The notes: generated by a model not told the origin, from the letters alone. DNA of 29,708 nucleotides from an uncultured Pygmaiobacter sp. (GCA_944386485.1 CALXBG010000028.1:1-29708), one strand, 5' to 3'; positions 415 to 15,616 are shown, counted from the stretch's first letter. A program made the numbers and translations.

Positions 415-1836
415 ATGGCGCTTTTTGATGTAATTGAGTATGAGGGTTCCGGCGAAGTTCTGATCCACCGGGCCGCACAGACCGATTTCAATACCCACAG
501 CACACTGGTGGTGCGGGAGTCCCAGAAGGCGATTTTAATCCGCAATGGACAGCTGGCGGATATCTTTGATCCCGGACGGTATGTGTTGCACACCCAGAAC
601 ATTCCCATCCTCAGCAAGCTGGTCAACCTGCCCACCGGCGGGGTGTCTCCATTTCAGTGCGAGGTCTACTTCATCAACCAGGCAATCTCCCTCAACCGCA
701 AATGGGGAACCAGTAGTCAGGCGCGGGTTTACGACCACACCTATGATCTGATCCTCACCATCGGTGCAAACGGCGCGATGGGGCTGCGGGTGCGGGATCC
801 GCGGCAGGTGCTGCTCTCGGTGGTCGGGACCGAGCCGGATCTGACCGGGGATCAGTTCCTGGACTATTTCCGGGACACCATCTCGATGAAGATCAAGGAG
901 TACATCGCACGGGTTATGCAGCGCCCTGAGATTGACTTTATGGTGCTTGACGCAAATCTCAGCGAGTTTTCAAACCAGGCCAAGGCTTTGCTCAACGAGG
1001 AGCTTGCCGAATACGGGGTGGAGATCTGCAACTTTTCAATCAGCAACATCCAGATTCCAGACGAACAGTATGAGGCGGTCTTGGTGATGCAGAACAAGCG
1101 TCATCTGCAGCGCCAGCGGGAGTTTGAGATGAAAGGCGACCTGAACCTGCAGATGATGAAGGCACAGGGGGATCGCGCCAGCCTGATGGTGGACGCCCAG
1201 GGAGAAAACGAGCGGCGCAAACTACAGGCGCTCACCGACGTCGAGATCGCGAATCTGCAGATCGACGTCGACGCTCACCGCACCGAGCGGATGGCGCAGG
1301 CTGAGGCGCGCGCCCGGGCTGTGCAGGGTTACAACTGGGCAGATCAGCAGCAGGCCGAGGTGGCGAAACTCTACGCTGCATCCGGCAGCCTGCAGAACAA
1401 CCCCGCCAATATGTTGGCGCAGGCGCCGATGGCGCTGGCCTTCGGAGATCTGCTTCGAGACAATGTCGAGCCGGTGATGAATCCCAACTACTCCAATCCC
1501 GGAATGAACTTCGGCAACGGGTTTCCCGGACAGAGCGGCGGGGAACAGCACAGCCCGTCCGGCGGCTTTGGCGCGCCGGAGGATTTCTCCCTGGGCATCG
1601 AGCCGGCCGACCCCACGACACCGGCCGACCCCACCGCACCGGAGGCACCGGCCGAACCGGCGGTGGCAGCGATCTGTCCGAACTGCGGCGCTTCGCTTGC
1701 CGGCAGCCCGAAATTCTGCCCCGAGTGCGGCACCCGACTGGCGCCGGCCGAGCCGGTGCGGTGTGGTTGCGGTCATCTCTTTGGGCCAAAAGAAAAGTTC
1801 TGTCCCGAGTGCGGCAGCCCCCGCCCCGGCGTCTAA
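415..1836 (+). CDS. SPFH/Band-7-like protein (YdjI / COG4260-like) with a Pro/Ala-rich linker and two C-terminal zinc ribbons
   Basis: 473-aa ORF with RBS AGGAGGGG. The N-terminal ~230 aa resemble the COG4260 'virion core protein-like' SPFH family (DVIEYEG...LIHR...V.ESQ.A....G...D...PGRY.L). A coiled-coil segment follows (QRQREFEMKGDLNLQMMKAQ...). Then comes the linker ADPTTPADPTAPEAPAEP. The two CxxC ribbons are CPNCG..x..FCPECG and CGCGH..x..FCPECG (about 1675-1818). Confidence 0.85.
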   Translation: MALFDVIEYEGSGEVLIHRAAQTDFNTHSTLVVRESQKAILIRNGQLADIFDPGRYVLHTQNIPILSKLVNLPTGGVSPFQCEVYFINQAISLNRKWGTSSQARVYDHTYDLILTIGANGAMGLRVRDPRQVLLSVVGTEPDLTGDQFLDYFRDTISMKIKEYIARVMQRPEIDFMVLDANLSEFSNQAKALLNEELAEYGVEICNFSISNIQIPDEQYEAVLVMQNKRHLQRQREFEMKGDLNLQMMKAQGDRASLMVDAQGENERRKLQALTDVEIANLQIDVDAHRTERMAQAEARARAVQGYNWADQQQAEVAKLYAASGSLQNNPANMLAQAPMALAFGDLLRDNVEPVMNPNYSNPGMNFGNGFPGQSGGEQHSPSGGFGAPEDFSLGIEPADPTTPADPTAPEAPAEPAVAAICPNCGASLAGSPKFCPECGTRLAPAEPVRCGCGHLFGPKEKFCPECGSPRPGV

Positions 1837-1905
1837 AGATTTCAACAATCCGGCAGCGACGGGTGGAAAACCCGCGGCCCGGAAAGGCAGAGGAGGAAAA
1901 CGGAA

Positions 1906-3849
1906 ATGGCGGTATTCAACTGCAAGATGTGTGGGGGCGACCTCGAGGTGATCGACCCTGAAAACGGATTGGCACAGTGCGAGAGCTGCGGCAAGAAGCA
2001 GACGTTGCCAAATGAACAGGATGAGCGGAAGGCCAATCAGTTCAACCGGGCCAATCACTACCGGCGCAGCAATGAGTTTGACCGGGCGGCGGACGCCTAT
2101 GCCAAGATTCTGGACACCGATCCCGGCGAGGCGGAGGCCTATTGGGGCATCGTGCTCTGCCGGTACGGCATCGAATATGTAGAGGATAAAAAGACGATGC
2201 GCCGGGTGCCGACCTGCCACCGCACCCTGACCCGCTCAATCCTGCAGGACCCCGATTACCTGCAGGCGCTCTCCTGTGCAAAGCCGCTGGCCCGGCTGCA
2301 GTATGAGGAGGAGGCGCAGGAGATCGACCGGCTGCAGAAAGAGATTCTCGCGCTGGCGAGTAAGGAGGAGCCGTTCGATATCTTCATCAGCTACAAGGAG
2401 ACCGACGAGCGCAGCGGTCAGCGCACGCCTGACAGCGTGTTGGCACAGGAGATCTACACCGCGCTGACGCGAGAGGGATACAAGGTCTTTTTCTCCCGCA
2501 TCACGCTGGAAAACCGGCTCGGACAGGATTACGAACCGATCATCTACGCCGCGCTGCGCTCAGCGAAGGTGATGGTGGCGGTGGGTACCCGGCCGGAGTA
2601 CTTTTCGGCTCCCTGGGTGCGCAACGAGTGGAACCGCTATCTCGGGATGATGGAGGAGGCGCAGGGCGGCAAAACCCTGATCCCGGTCTACCGGGAGATG
2701 GACCCTTACGACCTGCCGGAAGAGTTCTCCCATCTGCAAGGGCTTAACGCCGCCAACATCGGCTTTTTGCAGGATCTGCTGCACGGCATCGAGAAGCTGA
2801 TCCGGCAACCCGCGCAGCCGGCCGCAGCCGCAGCGCCGGCTGCGCCGTCGGGTGGAGCCAATGTGGAATCGCTGCTGCAGCGGGTGGATTTCTTCCTCGA
2901 GGACGGCAGGTTTGACAGCGCGCGGGAGTACTGCAACCGGGTGCTGGACATCGCCCCGACCGATTGGCGGCCCTATCTGGATCTGGTGCTCTGTGCGAGA
3001 CAGCAGCGCACCGCCGCGGCCCTTGCCGCGCAGGAGTCCAGCATCCACACCGACGAGAATTTCCAGAAGGCGCTGCGGTTTGCACCAAAGGAAAAAAAGG
3101 AGGAGCTGATCGGCTACGCGGCCGCGGCCTTTGCTGCCGAGCAGAGCAAGGTCGAGGAACTCTGCGCCGCCGAGCAGCAGAAGGAAGAGGGCTTGTTGCG
3201 TGAGTTGAAACCGCTCGAAGAACAGCTCGCACAGCCGCTGGCGCAGCTGCGGGAGAAAAAACAGAAGGCCGACGAGCTCGGGCGCCAGATTGCAGAGGAG
3301 GAAAAAAAGCAGCAGGAAGCGGCGGCGCAGAAGGCCCAGCACTACAATGTCAAACAGGCGCTGTATCAGAAATATAAACAAGAGAACGCAAAGGGCAATG
3401 TGGTCGAGGGCAATCTATTTGGCGATCTGGTCGGCTCTTTGATCCTGGCCGCGATCTGTTTTGTCATCGGGCTGATCGCCGGGGCGCTGTTCTTTCCACT
3501 AGGGGTCATCATCTGGGTACTGGGCGGAATTTCGATTCTTTTTTCGAATGTACAGACATATAGAAACAGGGAACTTCAGACCGACAGAAAAGAATACCAA
3601 AAACAGGGGAAAGAGGCCAAAAAGGCGCTGACGAAAGAGATGTCCAGTAAGCTGAAGGTGCAGTCGCTGGTCAAAGAAAAAAATCGATATGATGTTGAGA
3701 GCAACCAGATTTATCAGGTCAACAAGGCGCCGATGGATCAGCGCGCTGCGCTGATCCGACAGATCAACGACTGCAGAGAGAAGGTGCAGCAGAGCAAGCG
3801 CAGCCAGGAGGAGAATCTCAAATTGGCGCAAAAGATAGGGATTGTCTGA
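1906..3849 (+). CDS. TIR-domain protein: N-terminal zinc ribbon, TPR-like repeat, TIR, second TPR-like repeat, coiled coil, TM hairpin, charged coiled-coil tail
   Basis: 647-aa ORF with RBS GAGGAGGAAAA upstream. Zinc ribbon CKMCGG..x..CESCGKKQTLP at 1921-1989. TIR signature FDIFISYKETDE ... KVFFSR ... SAPWVRNEW spans about 2371-2790, with the candidate catalytic Glu241 codon at 2626-2628. Hydrophobic hairpin LVGSLILAAICFVIGLIAGALFF-PLGVIIWVLGGISILF at about 3421-3546. K/E/Q-rich coiled-coil segments flank the hairpin. Confidence 0.85.
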   Translation: MAVFNCKMCGGDLEVIDPENGLAQCESCGKKQTLPNEQDERKANQFNRANHYRRSNEFDRAADAYAKILDTDPGEAEAYWGIVLCRYGIEYVEDKKTMRRVPTCHRTLTRSILQDPDYLQALSCAKPLARLQYEEEAQEIDRLQKEILALASKEEPFDIFISYKETDERSGQRTPDSVLAQEIYTALTREGYKVFFSRITLENRLGQDYEPIIYAALRSAKVMVAVGTRPEYFSAPWVRNEWNRYLGMMEEAQGGKTLIPVYREMDPYDLPEEFSHLQGLNAANIGFLQDLLHGIEKLIRQPAQPAAAAAPAAPSGGANVESLLQRVDFFLEDGRFDSAREYCNRVLDIAPTDWRPYLDLVLCARQQRTAAALAAQESSIHTDENFQKALRFAPKEKKEELIGYAAAAFAAEQSKVEELCAAEQQKEEGLLRELKPLEEQLAQPLAQLREKKQKADELGRQIAEEEKKQQEAAAQKAQHYNVKQALYQKYKQENAKGNVVEGNLFGDLVGSLILAAICFVIGLIAGALFFPLGVIIWVLGGISILFSNVQTYRNRELQTDRKEYQKQGKEAKKALTKEMSSKLKVQSLVKEKNRYDVESNQIYQVNKAPMDQRAALIRQINDCREKVQQSKRSQEENLKLAQKIGIV

Positions 3850-3928
3850 ACCGATGCGCCGTGAGACAGGGGGGCAGCACAAGGCCGAAAACCCTGTGCT
3901 GCCCTTTGAGAAAGGATGTGGGGGAAGG

Positions 3929-6580
3929 ATGCCGCAGTTTGTGCCGATCCCGCTGAAAAACGGGCAGGTTTTGGGCTGTGTCGCCTATGAGATCACCTCG
4001 GTGCCGCAGGCATCGCAGGAGGGCGCAGCGGCGCAGACGGAGAATGAGACCGCTTTTTACAATCTGCTGGGCGAGGTGTACCGCTACTGCGCACCGGATG
4101 CGGCGGTGCTTGAGCTGCTCTGGTCGGCTCAGCCGGTCGAAAACCAGCCCCATGCGGCCCAGCTGCATCTGTACGCGGTGGCGCGGATGCTCTGCGCCGA
4201 CCGCAAGGAGCTGGAAACCCGGCTGCAGGCAGTCTGCGACAACCTGACCACCCGGTTGCAGGCCGGCGGCTTTCGGTTTGCCGAGGCCGACCTCGAGGCG
4301 CTGCGACCCTTTCTGCCTGACGGCGCCGCCTGTGTCAACGCGGTGACCAAAGCGGAACAGTGCACGTTGCACCCGCAGGCCGCCTTCCCTTATTATTATG
4401 CCGAACCGCTGCCCGAGCACGGCACCGACGATTTTGCGATGCTCAGCCGCACGATGGCCGAGCTGCCGGGCAGCGCGGTTTCGTTTCAGCTGTTGCCCAC
4501 CGGCTATACCGCCGCCGAGAGCGCCGCGTTGGAACAGATGCAGTCGCTGCTGGCCCAGGTTGTCGGGGGCACCACGATCGGCGGGCGGGCCTACCGCGAC
4601 CCGCTGGCCCAACCGGCGCTGGACGCGATCGGCCATACCGCCGCCCGGCTGCGCCAACCGGTCTTTCGCTACAACATCCTCGCCTTCGGCAACCAGAGCC
4701 AATGCGCGGCGCTGACCGCGCAGATCATCAGCCTGCTGCGCTGTGGCAGTGCCCGCAGCTTCGTCACCGTCAACCTCAACGCCGAACGGTTGGATCTGCG
4801 CCGCCAGTTCGCCTGGTATCCCTGGCAGATCAACCAAAAATTGTTGCGCGGTTACCGCAATACCCAGCTCTGGAGCCGGGTCAAGCTGCCGCAGGCCCTG
4901 TTTCGACTGCCGATGCTGCTCGGCGCCGAGGAGGCGACCACCTTTTTCCGACTGCCGCTGGGGGGCGACAAGCTCGCCGGATTGCCCAGCCACAGAGCGT
5001 TGCAGAATGCCCAGCAGCTCGACCCGCGGGTGGTTGCGGGGGAGAACCTTCAATTCGGGATACTGGCGGGGGGCGTCGCGCCGATCGGCTGCCCGCCCAA
5101 GAATCTGACCAAGCACATGTTGGTGGTCGGCAAACCCGGTACCGGAAAGACCACCTTTTCGGTCAATCTTCTGTTGCAGCTCTACCAGAAGGGGGTTCCC
5201 TTTCTTGCGATCGAGCCGACCAAAACCGAGTATCGGGCGATGATCGACGCCATCCCGGATCTGCAGATCTTCACCCCCGGCAACAACGGGGTCAGTCCCT
5301 TTGTCATCAATCCGTTCATTCCGCCCAAGGGGATCACCGTCGAGCAGTTTGTGCCCAGCCTTGCCAGCGCATTCAAGGCGGCATTCTCGATGCCGTCCCC
5401 GCTGGACACCATCTTTCAGGCCGCGATTCAGGAGGCGTATGTCCAGTATGGTTGGCGGGATTACAGTACCGCCGCCGACCCGGACGTCACCCCGTTCGGG
5501 CTGCACGAGTTTATCCTCGTGTTCAAGAATCTCATCGCCCGGGAAAAGTACAGCGCCGAGGTCAAGGGCAACCTGCAGAGCGGCGGTGTGTTGCGGCTGC
5601 GCAACCTGATTGAACAGAATGCCAACATCTACGACACCACCCACTCGGTGCCGCTGGAGGATCTGCTGGTGCACCCCACCGTGCTGGAACTCAACGCGAT
5701 CGACAATGAGGAGCAAAAATCGGTGCTGATGGCGCTGCTGCTCATCAATATCTGCGTTTATACCAAGCACAACCATCTGGGAGACGGCAAGCTGAAGAAC
5801 GCGATTTTGATCGATGAAGCGCATGTCCTCTTCAAGGCGGGCGGATCCAGCGAGGGGGCGAACACCACCGTGCGCTCACTCGAAAATATGCTCGCCGAGA
5901 TCCGCTCCTACGGCACCGGCATCATCATCGCCGACCAGTCCCCGGCGGCAGTCGGAGCCGAGGTGGTAAAGAACACCGAGGTCAAGACGGTGTTTCAGCT
6001 GGTTGACGTCGGCGACCGCAAGACCATCGCCGCCACCACCAACATGACCGCGGAACAGGAGGAACAGATTCCCCGGCTCGGGGTCGGCGAGGCGTTTATC
6101 AGCTATGGCCTGCTGGCCGAACCGGCGCTGGTGCAAACCCCCGATGTGCGGGAGGAACAGGGGATCCGGCTGAGTGTCTCGAACGAAGAGGTACACCGCC
6201 GGATGACCTATTGGGACAGCCACGGGCCGCTGTTGATCCCGTTTTACGAGTGTGGACAGTCGACGGTCTGCGCCGGCGGCTGCGATCTGCGGCTGCGCAG
6301 CGATGCGGCCTTCTTCGCGGCGCGGTTTGCCCAGAGCTACGGCGGCAAGATCACCGACGCGAAGAGCCTGTGCGCCTATGCCCGCGCCCTCGACGGCTGG
6401 CTGGATGAGCAGACCCCGCAGAGCGACCCGGAACGGCGGCGCCGGCTGCACAACTGCACCAAGATCCGGCTGATCCGCCGGATGATGCAGCAGCGGGAGA
6501 TTCCGCAGAGCCCCGCCGCCTATCAGAAACTGCTGCAGGCCGCCCTGGCCGAGGGAGCCGCCCCGCAGCCCGAAGCATAA
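3929..6580 (+). CDS. HerA/FtsK-superfamily P-loop ATPase (DUF87-like) with a ~400-aa uncharacterised N-terminal region and a Cys-containing C-terminal tail
   Basis: The long ORF opens at TTG 3842. I prefer ATG 3929 (MPQFVPIPLK...) because it is preceded by the purine-rich RBS AAAGGATGTGGGGGAAGG. ATG 3854 is a further alternative. Walker A VVGKPGTGKTT at 5129-5155. Walker B AILIDEAH at 5801-5824. HerA-type context is present: PFLAIEPTKTEY and IIIADQSPAAV...VKNTEVKTVFQL. Confidence 0.8.
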   Translation: MPQFVPIPLKNGQVLGCVAYEITSVPQASQEGAAAQTENETAFYNLLGEVYRYCAPDAAVLELLWSAQPVENQPHAAQLHLYAVARMLCADRKELETRLQAVCDNLTTRLQAGGFRFAEADLEALRPFLPDGAACVNAVTKAEQCTLHPQAAFPYYYAEPLPEHGTDDFAMLSRTMAELPGSAVSFQLLPTGYTAAESAALEQMQSLLAQVVGGTTIGGRAYRDPLAQPALDAIGHTAARLRQPVFRYNILAFGNQSQCAALTAQIISLLRCGSARSFVTVNLNAERLDLRRQFAWYPWQINQKLLRGYRNTQLWSRVKLPQALFRLPMLLGAEEATTFFRLPLGGDKLAGLPSHRALQNAQQLDPRVVAGENLQFGILAGGVAPIGCPPKNLTKHMLVVGKPGTGKTTFSVNLLLQLYQKGVPFLAIEPTKTEYRAMIDAIPDLQIFTPGNNGVSPFVINPFIPPKGITVEQFVPSLASAFKAAFSMPSPLDTIFQAAIQEAYVQYGWRDYSTAADPDVTPFGLHEFILVFKNLIAREKYSAEVKGNLQSGGVLRLRNLIEQNANIYDTTHSVPLEDLLVHPTVLELNAIDNEEQKSVLMALLLINICVYTKHNHLGDGKLKNAILIDEAHVLFKAGGSSEGANTTVRSLENMLAEIRSYGTGIIIADQSPAAVGAEVVKNTEVKTVFQLVDVGDRKTIAATTNMTAEQEEQIPRLGVGEAFISYGLLAEPALVQTPDVREEQGIRLSVSNEEVHRRMTYWDSHGPLLIPFYECGQSTVCAGGCDLRLRSDAAFFAARFAQSYGGKITDAKSLCAYARALDGWLDEQTPQSDPERRRRLHNCTKIRLIRRMMQQREIPQSPAAYQKLLQAALAEGAAPQPEA

Positions 6581-6592
6581 AGGAGAAACGCG

Positions 6593-8167
6593 ATGTGGGA
6601 CGAAGAATTTGACAGCGATCTCGACACCGGAAGCGACGTCGATTGCGATGTCGACGACGGCGGTTATGACCTCGATGACAGCGGATCCGATCTGCAGGTC
6701 AATCTTGACGAGAGCGTGGATTTCGATCTTGCCGATGTCGAACCGGCCGAACCCGCGGATCTCGATCTGGATGCAGAAGACTTTGAGGAACCCGCGGCGG
6801 ATCTGCCGGTGGAGCTCGAGGATGCCGGCGATCTTGCCGACGGCATGGCGCTGGATGAGGTCGAGGTGGCCGACCTCGGCGATCCCGAGGAGGAGCCGTC
6901 CGCCGGCGGCGAAATCAGCGATGAGCTGCTCGAGGCTTGGATGCAGGCTGAGCAGGAGGGGATACAGGAGTCCGGCGAAGAGGACGTCAAGGTACTGCGC
7001 CGGGATCCGGATGAGCTGATGGAGACCGGGATGCAGAATGTCGAGGAAATCCTCGACGTCCGCCGCGACGACATGATGGATAAGGGGATGAGCGAGGAGG
7101 AGATTGAGCAGGCAATCGCACAGGAGCGGGAGGCGCTGCGGTGGGAGTTTGTGCAGGACGCCTTCCCCGAGCGGTTTGAAGCACAGGAGCCCGAAGAGCT
7201 CGAAATGGAAGAGACAGCCGACCTTGCAGTAAAGGAAGAGAACGACACCGAAGAGGTTACCGATCTTGCAGCTGCACAGGATCTCGACCTGGAACAGGAT
7301 GAGGCGGATGCCCTGGAAACAGAATCGGAGGAGCTGGATGAGACGGCGGATACAGGGCTTGAGGGGACTCAGGTGACAGACGCCGATCTAGAGGAGGAAA
7401 CCGAGCCGGAGGACGATCTCGCCGAGCCGCTGGAGGAAGAGGAGATTTCCGAGCCGCTGGCAGAGGAACTGTCAAAAACCGAGCTGGAGGATACGGCGCT
7501 GCCCGAAGACGTTTCGGATGAGGAGGAAGAAGCGCCCGATCTGATGCGGGAGCTGGTGCGGCAGAATGTGCAGGACGTCCGGCTGCCGCGAGAAGGCGGC
7601 ACCTGGGCCGACCCCGCGCAGGCGGGGGAGGGGCTCTGGATACCGGACGACGATGCCGAACTCTTCTGGAAGGAGGAAGCCGGCGGCTCGATGACCGGCG
7701 CCGAGTTCAAACAGCGGTATGGGGTCGAGGGGGTGACCTACCGGGACGGAGAACCGGATTTTGAACCGTTCGAGGACGAACTGTTGGGCCATGTTGAACT
7801 GGAGGAGATGCCGACCGAGCGCACCGGGGCAGAGGGCAGCTATGCCGCCGCAACCCGCGCCGCCGCCGACCGGCTCGGAATCAGCGAGCAGGAGGTCGAG
7901 CAGCGGATGGAGGAGCGGGGGTTGACCTGGCACGAATGTGGCGACCGGCGAACGGTGCGGGCGATTCCGACCGAGGTCAACGCCGCGTTTCCCCACACCG
8001 GCGGAATCAGCATCCAGCGCGGCGTGCGGGCGATGGCGGAAGAACTAGCCGACCGGTATGGAACCGTGCGGCTGGATCGCAACGGCCCTGCCGGAACAAC
8101 CGAAGGGTTGACCGAGGCCCGCGGTGCCGTCCGGAGGGAATACCGTGGACAAAAGCGGAAGCTGTGA
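6593..8167 (+). CDS. Hyper-acidic protein with a C-terminal HNH/EndoVII-fold (WHH / GH-E-like, polymorphic-toxin type) nuclease domain
   Basis: 524-aa ORF. RBS AAAGGAG lies 6 nt before the ATG and 12 nt after the ATPase stop codon. 42 of the first 100 residues are D/E and none is K/R (counted by hand). The C-terminal region GEPDFEPF...GHVELE...LTWHECGDRRTVRAIPTEVNAAFPHTGG (about 7748-8020) follows the PDF...(Y)TWHH...LVP..H....HTGG layout of HNH/EndoVII toxin domains. The domain call is from memory of the family pattern, not from a search. Confidence 0.7.
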   Translation: MWDEEFDSDLDTGSDVDCDVDDGGYDLDDSGSDLQVNLDESVDFDLADVEPAEPADLDLDAEDFEEPAADLPVELEDAGDLADGMALDEVEVADLGDPEEEPSAGGEISDELLEAWMQAEQEGIQESGEEDVKVLRRDPDELMETGMQNVEEILDVRRDDMMDKGMSEEEIEQAIAQEREALRWEFVQDAFPERFEAQEPEELEMEETADLAVKEENDTEEVTDLAAAQDLDLEQDEADALETESEELDETADTGLEGTQVTDADLEEETEPEDDLAEPLEEEEISEPLAEELSKTELEDTALPEDVSDEEEEAPDLMRELVRQNVQDVRLPREGGTWADPAQAGEGLWIPDDDAELFWKEEAGGSMTGAEFKQRYGVEGVTYRDGEPDFEPFEDELLGHVELEEMPTERTGAEGSYAAATRAAADRLGISEQEVEQRMEERGLTWHECGDRRTVRAIPTEVNAAFPHTGGISIQRGVRAMAEELADRYGTVRLDRNGPAGTTEGLTEARGAVRREYRGQKRKL

Positions 8168-8170
8168 ATA

Positions 8171-8220
8171 AAAAGAGCCGGGATCTTGGACCGTCACGCC
8201 CAAGATCCCGGCTCTTTCTT
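8171..8220. terminator. Bidirectional rho-independent terminator between convergent genes
   Basis: Perfect 16-bp stem: AGAGCCGGGATCTTGG (8174-8189) pairs with CCAAGATCCCGGCTCT (8200-8215). An A-run lies upstream and TTCTT downstream, so it can serve both the + strand operon and the minus-strand HAD gene. Confidence 0.8.
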
Positions 8221-8235: not shown

Positions 8236-9069
8236 TCAGCGGTCGGCGGGGCGGGTCATCCGCACCGCGGCGAAACCGGCCAGCAGCGGCAGAGCCACAC
8301 AGGCCGCGACGCCTGCTGCGTTGCCAACGAACAGAAAGTAGATCAGTCCGACTAGCCCAACCAACATCAACAGTACCGAAAAGAGTGCAAGACCGCGGCG
8401 CAGCCCCTCGGCTCGATTTCGACTAAGTACGGCGGTCAGAACGTCTTCAGGCACGGCTGCGATCTGCTGGGCACCGGCCGCTTCCAGCTCATCGGCGTCT
8501 CGAAAACCCCACAGTACGCCGCAGCTTGCGGTTTTGGCATTCTGGGCGGTGTGGATGTCGACGTTGCTGTCCCCGACATAGAGTACCTGATCGGGATGCA
8601 GCCCAAAGTCAGCGATTACGCGATTGAGTGCGGCGGGATCGGGTTTAACCAGCGTACCCTGCTGGCCCGCAACCGAGTCGAAAATGCCGGGGAAGTATTG
8701 TTCAACGATCTGGGTGACAAATTCATGTGGTTTGTTTGAGACCACGCCGAGCCGAATCCCTTTAGCTTTAAGGGCGGTCAGCAGCTGTGGGATGCCGGGA
8801 TAGGGAACGGTGCAGTCCCGCATATGGGCCTGATAATGGGTGTCAAACAAACCGCTTGCCCGCTCGACGGCGGATTCATCGGTTCGCAGCTGCTCAGGCA
8901 GCATCCGCAGAATCAGATTGCGTCGTCCATCTCCGACAAGGTGCTTGTATTCCTCCACGGTGTAGGTGGGCAGCCCCATCTCGGTCAGCGCAAAATTGCA
9001 GGCATTGGCAAGATCCTCGATGGTGTTGAGCAGAGTGCCGTCGAGGTCGAAAATCACAGCTTTGATCAT
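8236..9069 (-). CDS. HAD-superfamily phosphatase (phosphoglycolate phosphatase/PpaX-like) with a C-terminal hydrophobic hairpin
   Basis: HAD motif I is present: MIKAVIFDLDGTLLNT. Later motifs are VVSNK and YVGDSNVDI. I chose the ATG at 9069 because a perfect RBS (AAAGGAG) lies 9 nt upstream. The track's GTG at 9090 abuts that RBS. The last ~55 aa are two hydrophobic segments: LALFSVLLMLVGLVGLIYFLFVG and VAACVALPLLAGFAAV. Confidence 0.85.
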   Translation of the reverse strand: MIKAVIFDLDGTLLNTIEDLANACNFALTEMGLPTYTVEEYKHLVGDGRRNLILRMLPEQLRTDESAVERASGLFDTHYQAHMRDCTVPYPGIPQLLTALKAKGIRLGVVSNKPHEFVTQIVEQYFPGIFDSVAGQQGTLVKPDPAALNRVIADFGLHPDQVLYVGDSNVDIHTAQNAKTASCGVLWGFRDADELEAAGAQQIAAVPEDVLTAVLSRNRAEGLRRGLALFSVLLMLVGLVGLIYFLFVGNAAGVAACVALPLLAGFAAVRMTRPADR

Positions 9070-13826: not shown

Positions 13827-13903
13827 GCGTCCGTAGCTCAGTTGGATAGAGCGTTCGGCTCCGACCCGGAAGGCCGCAGGTTCGAATCCTGTCGGGCGCA
13901 CCA
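13827..13903 (+). tRNA. tRNA-Arg (anticodon CCG), 77 nt including CCA
   Basis: Acceptor GCGTCCG pairs with CGGGCGC. D arm is GCTC-AGTTGGATA-GAGC. Anticodon stem TTCGG/CCGGA carries loop CTCCGAC. T arm is GCAGG-TTCGAAT-CCTGT, followed by ACCA. Confidence 0.93.
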
Positions 13904-14020: not shown

Positions 14021-14071
14021 GAAGGTACAAAATTCCTCAGAATGAAAACAGGATCAAAAGGAGGGAGTCAG

Positions 14072-15616
14072 ATGAACTGTCCCAATTGTGGCAATCCCGT
14101 TTCAGAGGGAGCTTCTTTCTGCCCGTTGTGTGGGTCAAGGGTGAATGCGGCGTTGTCTGCACAGCACCAGGAACAGTCGGCGCCGGGCAATCCGGTACAG
14201 CCGGTGCAAGGGGAGAGCGGCCCGCAGACGGCCGCGCAGCAGGGCAATGACCAGTCTGGCTATACGCAGCAGAGTTACCCGCAGCAAGGTTACACGCAGC
14301 AGAGCTATGGCCAGCAAAGCTACACCCAGCAGAACTACGGCCAACCGGGGTATGGCTACAATCAGCCGGATATGGGACCGCAGCGGCCGGTCAGTCCCTA
14401 TTATCAGCGGCAGTTTGCCCTGATCGCGCAGGGCCAGCGCAGCCGGTTTAACTGGGCGGCTTTCTTTCTCGGGCCGTATCATGCGGTCTACCGCGGTCAT
14501 ACCAAGCGGTTTCTCGCCCTTTACCTGCCGCTGCTGATCCTGACCTTGGTCAACGAGGTCGCGCTGATTGCGGCATTTGGAGCGAATAACCTTTCTCTGA
14601 TCGGGATCACGGTGATTCTCAGCTGGGTTATCTCCCTGGTTTCCATCGGCCTTGCGATCTATAATGGACTTACCTTTAATAAAAGCTATTTTGCCCTCTG
14701 TGGCGGTGACCCGCGGGTGCCATCCTGCGGCGGACGGCTTGCCGTGACCATCATCACGGTGACGCTGGTCAGCATTGTGGCCGCGGTTGCCCTTTTCGGC
14801 GTCATGATGAACCAGGCGTTCAGCCAGCTGGAAAATTTGGGTGAGTATCCCTTCGATAACTCTTACGTTGAGCAGCTGCCCCCTGACGGTACCGTGCCGC
14901 AGGGCGGACAGCAGGAGCCGCAGACCGGTTCGCAGTCCGCTGTGACCGGCGGTACACAGGATATTACCGGGCTGCTCGTTGATTACGGCGACGTCGTCGC
15001 CGATCAGCTGTACCTGCTGGGCTGGAACGACCCTGATATGACCGAGGCGGAGCAGATTGTCAACAGCGCTTATCTGTTCCGCTCGGATAAGGTGAGCATG
15101 ATTGACGCCCTCAGCACCGCCTCGCAATCGATCTACTGGGAGGAGGTACAGCCCAGCGAAACAGTTTTTGAAGGAGCCAGATATTTTTCCGTCTACTGTA
15201 CGCTGGAAGAGGGAGACATCGTCTTTGACTTCGCCATCGGCGGGGGCAATGTGATGGTTTTCGGCTGCTATGTCTGGGAGGGCGAGAACTATGTCGGGCT
15301 GAATGAGCAGCAAGCTTCTGCGTTGCTGGAAGCTCTGTACAGCCGGGCGGGCGTACCCCAGTCGATTCCCTATCAGGCGCGCGGAAGCTGGCGGACCTCT
15401 GCCGGTGAGGAGTTCGTGCTGGATGGCGAGACTCTCAACGGACAGCCCTATACCCTCTGGTTTATGAGCGAAGATATTCTTGCGGTCTATCTGGACAACG
15501 TCGAGGGAGTAGAGGGCGAGTATTACATGATGATAGAGGGCCCGATCCTCAATGTCTGGCAGTACGACGCGAGCGGGGCGATCATCAACGATCTGTACTA
15601 TACAAAAGCCAACTAA
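14072..15616 (+). CDS. Zinc-ribbon / Q,Y-rich repeat / DUF2628-like multi-TM protein with a C-terminal extracytoplasmic domain
   Basis: ATG at 14072 with RBS AAAGGAGGGAG upstream. The track start at 14042 lacks an RBS. N-terminal ribbon MNCPNCGNPVSEGASFCPLCG. YxQQx pentapeptide repeats follow. RFNWAAFFLGPYHAVYRGHTKRF is DUF2628-like. Three or four TM helices precede a ~270-aa soluble tail. Confidence 0.8.
   Translation: MNCPNCGNPVSEGASFCPLCGSRVNAALSAQHQEQSAPGNPVQPVQGESGPQTAAQQGNDQSGYTQQSYPQQGYTQQSYGQQSYTQQNYGQPGYGYNQPDMGPQRPVSPYYQRQFALIAQGQRSRFNWAAFFLGPYHAVYRGHTKRFLALYLPLLILTLVNEVALIAAFGANNLSLIGITVILSWVISLVSIGLAIYNGLTFNKSYFALCGGDPRVPSCGGRLAVTIITVTLVSIVAAVALFGVMMNQAFSQLENLGEYPFDNSYVEQLPPDGTVPQGGQQEPQTGSQSAVTGGTQDITGLLVDYGDVVADQLYLLGWNDPDMTEAEQIVNSAYLFRSDKVSMIDALSTASQSIYWEEVQPSETVFEGARYFSVYCTLEEGDIVFDFAIGGGNVMVFGCYVWEGENYVGLNEQQASALLEALYSRAGVPQSIPYQARGSWRTSAGEEFVLDGETLNGQPYTLWFMSEDILAVYLDNVEGVEGEYYMMIEGPILNVWQYDASGAIINDLYYTKAN
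14261..14350 (+). repeat. Six tandem 15-nt (pentapeptide) coding repeats, Y-[TPG]-Q-[QP]-[SGN]
   Basis: The units are TATACGCAGCAGAGT, TACCCGCAGCAAGGT, TACACGCAGCAGAGC, TATGGCCAGCAAAGC, TACACCCAGCAGAAC and TACGGCCAACCGGGG. All are in frame with the CDS. Confidence 0.8.

Follow-up and report, generated by a model that had tools for sequence, protein, structure and literature searches.

Positions 415 to 8,167 of a 29,708-nucleotide stretch of DNA from an uncultured Pygmaiobacter sp. (GCA_944386485.1, CALXBG010000028.1:1-29708; the whole stretch is hereafter called the window) hold a cassette of four genes that encode an SPFH protein with a Zn ribbon (gene 1), a Zn-ribbon–TPR–TIR protein (gene 2), a VirB4-like ATPase (gene 3) and a hyper-acidic protein with a nuclease domain (gene 4). 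As judged by comparison with related loci, the cassette belongs, as a compact variant, to a much larger system that spans at least 7 phyla, and it appears to be a self-contained, horizontally mobile form of a membrane-associated conflict system not previously described. For this variant, we lean slightly towards the role of an abortive-infection-type conflict or defence module over toxin export, with a probability of about 0.4.

A co-conserved cassette of four genes

415-1836, + strand: gene 1, SPFH–Zn-ribbon protein (Pfam, hydropathy scan)
1906-3849, + strand: gene 2, adaptor/effector protein (Pfam, residue and hydropathy scans)
3842/3929-6580, + strand: gene 3, VirB4-architecture ATPase, 883 amino acids (aa) when read from 3929
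6593-8167, + strand: gene 4, hyper-acidic carrier and nuclease (Pfam, alignments, composition)

Open reading frame (ORF) calling bore out the four same-strand genes that a first-pass annotation of the window had proposed, of which genes 1 and 2 are separated by 69 nucleotides (nt) and genes 3 and 4 by 12 nt. Pfam recovered every domain named in that annotation (SPFH, TIR, HerA-type ATPase and HNH), and the residues it had singled out, i.e. E241 of gene 2, the Walker A lysine of gene 3 (nt 5147-5149) and H447 of gene 4, lie where it had placed them. The three starts it had listed for gene 3 (TTG at 3842, ATG at 3854 and ATG at 3929) all exist, and public records differ between them, NCBI starting a 908-aa protein at 3854 and another source an 883-aa one at 3929. 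The start at 3929 is the best supported because a G-rich ribosome-binding site (RBS; GGGGGAAGG) lies directly upstream, the N-termini of homologues coincide there, and one source calls the identical 883-aa protein; with this start, a gap of 79 nt would separate gene 3 from gene 2.

The four genes form a single co-conserved unit, as had been proposed. In other gut Clostridia, the cassette is intact at ~75% nucleotide identity, all four genes being retained within differing flanks, and the nucleotide homology runs from the gene 1 RBS (nt 405-415) to within gene 4 (nt ~8040). Proteins 76-78% identical to gene 3 are encoded at the loci L049, L050/L051 and L056, in the same gene order (SPFH, TIR, ATPase, nuclease) and amid unrelated flanking genes; L056 is bracketed by tyrosine recombinases and a transposase. 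The GC content of the cassette is the same as that of its flanks. A search for an empty site by way of the flanking HAD phosphatase gene found none, every contig with an identical HAD gene also carrying the cassette, and a search for att sites or direct repeats around the cassette gave nothing convincing.

The wider system and its distribution

Relatives of gene 3 were collected with a degenerate-pattern scan, one genome per species, which yielded at least 43 loci, a sample biased towards gut metagenome-assembled genomes; ORFs at the related loci were taken from a simple, crude ORF caller and clustered by BLASTP. The loci listed come from Bacillota, Bacteroidota, Planctomycetota, Verrucomicrobiota (Opitutaceae), Kiritimatiellia, Acidobacteriota, Chloroflexota and Actinomycetota. 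The core of the system has four parts, all present in the window, namely an ATPase of ~880 aa, a hyper-acidic protein encoded immediately downstream of it, a Zn-ribbon–TPR protein, and a cytosolic SPFH protein of the Band_7_1 class that bears a Zn ribbon. Two of these parts carry effectors in the window, a TIR domain within the Zn-ribbon–TPR protein and an HNH 'TWHEC' nuclease on the acidic protein. The core is co-conserved in Bacillota, Bacteroidota, Planctomycetota, Verrucomicrobiota and Kiritimatiellia, and among full-length family loci flanked by 5 kb or more on each side, the SPFH gene was found at 12/12, the acidic gene at 11/12 and the Zn-ribbon–TPR gene at 9/12.

In the broader sample, a same-strand SPFH gene lies near the ATPase gene at 25-26 loci (25 of the 41 listed). 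Further partners, all encoded on the same strand as the ATPase, are c2, a ~228-aa protein with four transmembrane (TM) segments that always comes directly after the SPFH protein (21-22 loci listed), c3 (~237 aa; 17 loci listed), c4, a ~197-aa Zn-ribbon–TPR protein (15 loci listed), and c5, a 2-TM protein with a YidD domain (Pfam 5e-22; 8 loci listed). In Bacteroidota, the SPFH gene is followed by that for a Zn-ribbon TM protein, c9. Profile searches with c2 and c3 against the sequences of the PDB gave no significant match. In c5, as at L010 (1560-2030), YidD, a membrane-protein insertion efficiency factor, is joined to two TM helices in a protein whose gene immediately precedes that of the ATPase, an unusual setting for this domain.

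The system is sometimes plasmid-borne or flanked by an integrase and elsewhere sits among housekeeping genes. A location in defence islands, for which the first-pass annotation had suggested a test, was not apparent: the 86 flanking genes comprise 3 integrases and otherwise mostly housekeeping genes, with no enrichment. A phage origin was considered and rejected, the system being almost absent from phage records, where tblastn gave 2 partial matches only, and from viral contigs, among 2.9 million of which there was 1 match.

The proteins of the cassette and their relatives

Gene 3, a ring ATPase, consists of a VirB4-like N-terminal domain (aa 1-380, nt 3929-5068), which is also EccE-like, a single ATPase domain of the HerA/VirB4/DptH type (aa ~390-750, nt 5096-6178; Pfam DUF87 6.8e-7 and HerA_C 1.8e-7) and a helical C-terminal domain with conserved cysteines 775, 781, 785 and 843; it has no TM segment. 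The Walker A lysine is K407 and the Walker B residues are D629-E630, and the Walker A, Walker B and arginine residues are invariant across the relatives. The ATPase domain matches profiles of the HerA/FtsK/VirB4 superfamily (CedD, 1.3e-19; HerA; VirB4_plasma; PADLOC mad8, 1.7e-18), all scores being far under the family cut-offs, and the NCBIfam search gave sub-threshold matches only (CedD, HerA and VirB4_plasma). The N-terminal domain is specific to the family, being found in 135 representative clusters (50% identity) among 1.84 billion, and the full-length matches to it are mostly ~860-915 aa long.

Gene 4 is preceded by a strong RBS (AAAGGAGA) and opens with the motif MWDEEFDSDLDTGSD. Its first 320 aa (nt 6593-7552) are acidic and disordered, with 129 D+E versus 12 K+R. 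The first-pass annotation had described gene 4 as an acidic nuclease; its acidic N-terminus turns out to be conserved as the distinguishing feature of the whole system, in which it acts as the carrier to which polymorphic toxin domains are attached. At the related loci, the gene located 0-23 nt after the ATPase gene, in some cases overlapping it, encodes at least 25% D+E in its first 100 residues at 26/31 loci, versus 8/450 other genes, and the acidic gene is probably translationally coupled to the upstream ATPase gene. Many of the acidic proteins share the N-terminal motif M-D-E-E-F/Y-x-D/E-S-x-D-T-S (examples are MDEEYSDSIDTS, MDEEYNESEDTS, MGDEYTETVDTS and MWDEEFDSDLDTG); a strict regular expression for it matched 6/31 of the genes after the ATPase, from both Firmicutes and Bacteroidota, compared with 0/450 others.

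These proteins come in two forms. The short ones (67-130 aa) are purely acidic and, by eye, end in a sequence like 'D-D-x-K-V-x-V-K/R'. The long ones carry a C-terminal domain, which is a WHH/Colicin-DNase nuclease in the window, L049, L050, L054 and L056, a Papain-fold toxin 1/Gln deamidase (Gln_amidase) domain in L004 and L011, a TNT NAD-glycohydrolase in L014, and SprT/DUF6782-like or other HExxH domains in the clusters c7 and c13; at L002, a separate Endonuclea_NS_2 ORF follows an acidic protein of 112 aa. On a mobilizable plasmid of Priestia megaterium (NZ_CP064271; L044, 8731-15204), the gene for an ATPase 28% identical to gene 3 is followed by that for a 1,135-aa acidic protein made of near-perfect ~45-aa repeats, both proteins being annotated as hypothetical.

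The gene 4 nuclease, of HNH/WHH type, occupies aa ~330-483 (nt 7580-8041) and matches WHH (3.1e-8) and Colicin-DNase (8.5e-7), both above the gathering scores; H447 (nt 7931-7933) lies in TWHE. The invariant signature of its sub-family is T-W-H-E-C-x-D … H-x-G-G, in which the second histidine of 'WHH' is a glutamate throughout, and the strict conservation of 'WHE' argues for a predicted active enzyme. Homologues of this nuclease also occur in short proteins (325-337 aa) that have the same acidic leader and are encoded between the ATPase and SPFH genes. In a Dorea-like genome (L055, 10001-11472), a TWHEC nuclease of 261 aa that lacks the acidic leader has been inserted between trmD and rplS and precedes an ORF of 144 aa, with which it may form a stand-alone toxin/immunity pair. 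Between the acidic region and the toxin head of gene 4 lies a conserved module of ~70 aa (aa 126-195, nt 6968-7177; …VKVLRRDPDEL…MSEEEIE…EFVQDAFPE), which is also found in an HExxH-toxin protein of the Lachnospiraceae locus L006 (10702-13146) and may be a linker or adaptor.

Gene 2 begins with a Zn-ribbon–TPR module (aa 1-140, nt 1906-2325), continues with a TIR domain (aa 159-281, nt 2380-2748; TIR_2, Pfam 3.5e-14) and TPR (aa 321-366), and ends with a coiled coil, a TM hairpin (aa ~502-550, nt 3409-3555) and a C-terminal coiled coil; the predicted topology places the TIR domain in the cytoplasm. E241 (nt 2626-2628) sits in WVRNEW, and the glutamate of W-V-R/K-N-E-W is kept in all relatives inspected, so that by its TIR fold and conserved catalytic glutamate gene 2 is a predicted TIR NADase. 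A jackhmmer search with aa 1-140 identified the ~197-aa Zn-ribbon–TPR proteins of c4 and c6 as homologous (E-values 1e-15 to 1e-30). Because of this homology, gene 2 can be regarded as the conserved adaptor of the system with the TIR domain and TM hairpin built in; the module is present in 23 of the 41 loci listed. The earlier reading of gene 2 as a TIR protein was therefore right about the domain, but the conserved part is the Zn-ribbon–TPR module, and the TIR domain is an insertion limited to one Clostridia sub-clade.

The TIR domain is rare in the species-level sample (1/43 loci listed, L002) and recurrent in the clade of the window (L045, L052/L053, L056 and L057). At L045, which lies between the genes for EF-G and LeuRS, the order is SPFH, ATPase, an acidic protein of 128 aa and TIR, and L056 carries two tandem TIR genes. 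At L057 (1-14324), four TIR genes surround the VirB4-like ATPase gene, two of them fused to DUF6273, and there is one additional DUF6273-only gene. DUF6273 resembles C-type lectins and is known to be varied by diversity-generating retroelements; no template repeat of such an element and no reverse transcriptase was seen in 18 kb of L057, where the repeats reflect paralogue similarity only. The Zn-ribbon–TPR–TIR–TPR module as a whole (~400 aa; gene 2 aa 1-400, nt 1906-3105) matches at least 7,984 proteins at ~50% identity, a family of gut Clostridia with variable C-termini (RCC1, LRR, RHS and DUF6273). Some members stand alone, with no link to an ATPase (L058, P0260), and there a TM segment is followed by RCC1 repeats in a topology resembling that of Toll-like receptors.

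Gene 1 encodes a Band_7_1 domain (aa 26-222, nt 490-1080; Pfam 1.2e-45), a low-complexity linker and a C-terminal double Zn ribbon (aa 421-467, nt 1675-1815; DZR 1.3e-7), and a hydropathy scan found no TM or other hydrophobic segment. By its sequence, it is a cytosolic SPFH protein of the Band_7_1 (YdjI/SamI) class.

Possible functions of the cassette

The 'dual-effector abortive infection' module proposed in the first-pass annotation fits the domains of the cassette and is the reading we slightly favour, but it has a live competitor, since both the VirB4 architecture and the pattern of polymorphic toxins are compatible with toxin translocation as well. In an abortive-infection mechanism, the SPFH protein of gene 1 and the gene 2 protein, anchored by its TM hairpin, would tether a gene 3 hexamer at the cytoplasmic face of the membrane, and the polyanionic tail of gene 4 would fill the nucleic-acid channel of the ATPase as a DNA mimic, the nuclease being kept sequestered. 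Foreign DNA entering at the membrane, or membrane perturbation, would serve as the trigger, upon which the ATPase would engage the DNA or eject the tail; the nuclease would then be released and the TIR domains would cluster, DNA would be degraded and NAD+ consumed, and the infected cell would be sacrificed or arrested. With toxins that are active only after the trigger, no immunity protein would be needed.

Several observations are in line with defence. A core component contains a predicted cytoplasmic TIR domain whose catalytic glutamate is invariant, TIR paralogues gather at the ATPase (L056, L057), some of them fused to the C-lectin-type DUF6273 sensor, and relatives of the ATPase domain include some of defence type. 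The cassette stays together as a unit in differing flanks, and identical gene sets, with no outer-membrane component, are found in monoderms and diderms. Nucleases and the TNT protein have no adjacent candidate immunity ORF in at least 5 independent contexts (the window; L048/L049; L056; L054, where the SPFH gene is directly next; and the TNT protein of L014). Weighing against defence, the flanking genes are mostly housekeeping genes rather than defence islands, the N-terminal domain of gene 3 is VirB4-like and EccE-like, and, to our knowledge, such folds are known only from secretion machines. A conserved leader combined with polymorphic WHH, Tox-PL1, TNT and Endonuclea_NS_2 domains is the signature of exported toxins, and a small downstream ORF, conceivably an immunity gene, is present at several toxin loci (c8 after c7 in 4/4), unlike the situation at the window nuclease. 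Furthermore, most acidic proteins of Bacteroidota carry no toxin, so killing is not required for the core function, and the plugging of the ATPase channel by the gene 4 tail is purely conjectural.

Much of this would be accommodated by a toxin-export machine akin to a type VII secretion system or a minimal type IV secretion system, a possibility that we consider somewhat unlikely, although the evidence for it and for defence is roughly balanced. The ATPase would recognize the N-terminal motif and thread the unfolded polyanionic carrier, together with its C-terminal toxin, through a membrane channel made of TM partners (the gene 2 hairpin in the window, the 4-TM c2 and the YidD-like c5 elsewhere), the SPFH protein would be a scaffold, the toxins would hit competing bacteria, and the toxin-less short acidic proteins would be core substrates, as WXG100 proteins are to LXG toxins. 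In addition to the leader, the ATPase architecture and the small ORFs, such export is consistent with the many membrane partners, including a YidD-domain protein, with C-terminal domains from secreted-toxin families (Gln_amidase, TNT, SprT/DUF6782, WHH and Endonuclea_NS_2), with the missing defence-island context, and with the near-absence from phage records and viral contigs. It is at odds with the finding that no immunity gene adjoins the nuclease of the window, its homologues in four further contexts, the nuclease of L002 or the TNT protein of L014, and the small ORFs show no match to any known immunity family. Nor does export provide a role for a predicted cytoplasmic, catalytically intact TIR domain within a core component; VirD4, VirB6, VirB8, a cell-wall hydrolase and an outer-membrane component were not detected in Pfam scans of the window and related loci, and the sameness of the gene sets in monoderm and diderm phyla is likewise hard to reconcile with it. 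In its fullest form, export would amount to an unrecognized VirB4-derived translocation system of monoderm and diderm gut bacteria, in which hyper-acidic, nucleic-acid-mimicking carriers deliver interchangeable toxin heads and to which the clade of the window adds TIR signalling/NADase modules, and in that form it is doubtful. Less probable still is a membrane-stress or remodelling module like PspA–YdjGHI/SamGHI, in which the core would carry out a housekeeping-like surveillance of the envelope and the toxins and TIR domains would be secondary, e.g. addiction modules that stabilize a mobile element. This analogy draws on the recruitment of YdjI-type Band_7_1 proteins by Zn-ribbon and TM partners to organize PspA, on the invariable place of c2 after the SPFH protein and the addition of c9 in Bacteroidota, and on the many toxin-less loci and housekeeping flanks; it is countered by the absence of a PspA or ESCRT-III-like gene from the window, by the patchy phyletic distribution (as in the small number of clusters with the N-terminal domain), by the movement of the cassette between contexts, and by the repeated gain of diverse toxins and TIR domains that is typical of conflict systems. 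Finally, the size of the Zn-ribbon–TPR–TIR family, with its standalone members, and the lone TWHEC nuclease of Dorea might suggest a mere juxtaposition of a TIR defence gene and a nuclease toxin with an unrelated SPFH/ATPase pair. Such a composite is effectively excluded, given that gene 2 supplies, with its N-terminal module, the system's conserved adaptor, that gene 4 bears the system-specific acidic leader, and that gene order and tight spacing are kept at ~75% nucleotide identity, with homology extending from the gene 1 RBS into gene 4.

Comparison with known systems

PADLOC v2.0.0 assigns no named defence system to the cassette, in agreement with the first-pass annotation. Its matches to the core parts were limited to generic HerA, mad8 and DndH ATPases, and its sole match to gene 2 was a weak one, PDC-S66 (2.8e-5). 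A combination of SPFH, acidic and VirB4-like proteins was not described in the open-access papers and bioRxiv searched, and no such system appears in a 2012 survey of polymorphic toxins, an eLife 2020 paper on conflict systems or a 2024 paper on 'HerA-FtsK capture'.

Among HerA-based defence systems, Sir2–HerA (Nezha) and DUF4297–HerA (Gao_Her) differ from the cassette in that the N-terminal domain of gene 3 is VirB4-like instead of a HAS barrel; Pfam and PADLOC find no SIR2 or DUF4297 in the four proteins, the PADLOC match to HerA is partial (1e-8), and the effectors are parts of a hyper-acidic carrier and of a Zn-ribbon–TPR protein anchored in the membrane, with an SPFH partner added. Similarly, only the ATPase domain matches DndFGH/DptFGH (DptH) and MADS (mad8), whereas the N-terminal regions are unrelated and the partner genes (mad1-7, i.e. 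the methylase and others, and DptF/DptG) are not present. Like the TIR proteins of Thoeris (ThsB), SpbK, TIR-STING and short pAgo-TIR systems, gene 2 has a TIR_2 domain with the catalytic glutamate in W-x3-E, but there is no STING or Ago partner, the PADLOC scan shows no ThsA effector (SIR2/Macro–SLOG), and the domain is inserted in the Zn-ribbon–TPR…TM scaffold of a large Clostridia family.

Gene 3 resembles VirB4 of type IV secretion in having an N-terminal domain and a C-terminal ATPase domain, although its sequence identity to VirB4 (TrwK) and to archaeal Ced ATPases is only ~9-12%. Pfam scans of the window and of representative proteins from related loci found no VirB3, VirB6, VirB8, VirD4, relaxase or pilin, the conserved partners here being the SPFH, Zn-ribbon–TPR and acidic proteins. 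Compared with EssC/EccC of type VII secretion, gene 3 has one ATPase domain and no FHA or TM segments, the substrate-like proteins are disordered polyanions rather than WXG helical hairpins, and immunity genes are often missing. The acidic proteins are reminiscent of polymorphic toxin systems in the sense of Zhang et al. 2012, one leader being joined to WHH/Colicin-DNase, Gln_amidase, TNT and SprT/DUF6782-like domains; unlike those systems, no immunity gene directly follows the nuclease in the window, L048/L049, L054 or L056, while small ORFs do come after other toxins of the wider family. With PspA–YdjGHI (SamGHI) of B. subtilis, the cassette shares the class of its SPFH protein. In that system, a Zn-ribbon membrane protein and a TM partner bring cytosolic Band_7_1 proteins of the YdjI kind to the membrane, where they organize PspA, whereas the window has no PspA-family gene, and gene 1 carries its own double Zn ribbon and is linked to an ATPase and toxins.

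If the family does function in defence, no defence system before it would have been based on a VirB4-type motor or have had effectors riding on a polyanionic, possibly DNA-mimicking, tail, and it would link SPFH membrane scaffolds to immunity. Should it export toxins instead, abundant gut Clostridia and Bacteroidota would possess a new secretion pathway whose secretion signal is likewise of a new class. Under either reading, a conserved four-part module of this phyletic breadth is absent from current defence catalogues and provides a handle on the very large Zn-ribbon–TPR–TIR family of gut Firmicutes, and K407, E241 and H447 are clear sites for point mutants.

Boundaries and surroundings of the cassette

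50-124, + strand: tRNA-Glu(UUC), upstream boundary of the cassette (ARAGORN)
130-165 and 181-224: two hairpins between tRNA-Glu and the cassette (terminator scan; inverted repeats I14 and I8)
327-355, + strand: candidate sigma-70-like promoter, TTGAAC-17-TATTAT, 9/12 consensus positions
8172-8217: perfect inverted repeat of 18 bp, flanked on each side by T/A runs, bidirectional terminator closing the cassette
8236-9069, − strand: convergent gene for a HAD phosphatase, downstream neighbour

The hairpins after tRNA-Glu and the bidirectional terminator that had been taken as the boundaries are present, but the terminator repeat is a perfect one of 18 bp at 8172-8217, not one of 16 bp. It begins 5 nt past the stop of gene 4 and, together with the convergent HAD gene, leaves no space for an immunity ORF after gene 4. 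The promoter proposed at 327-355 exists as a site; however, sigma-70-like matches are not significantly enriched in the window (4 observed versus 1.6 expected), and the site is therefore a consensus match only. Within gene 3, a weak terminator-like hairpin on the + strand (4254-4271) is at chance level.

The remaining genes of the window are housekeeping genes, including those for the HAD phosphatase, bPH_2 proteins, MatE and a GluRS-like protein, and his genes. Just past tRNA-Arg (13827-13903), positions 14042-15616 encode a protein of 524 aa that has a Zn ribbon at its N-terminus, TM segments and a low-complexity stretch rich in Q and Y, and that seems unrelated to the cassette.

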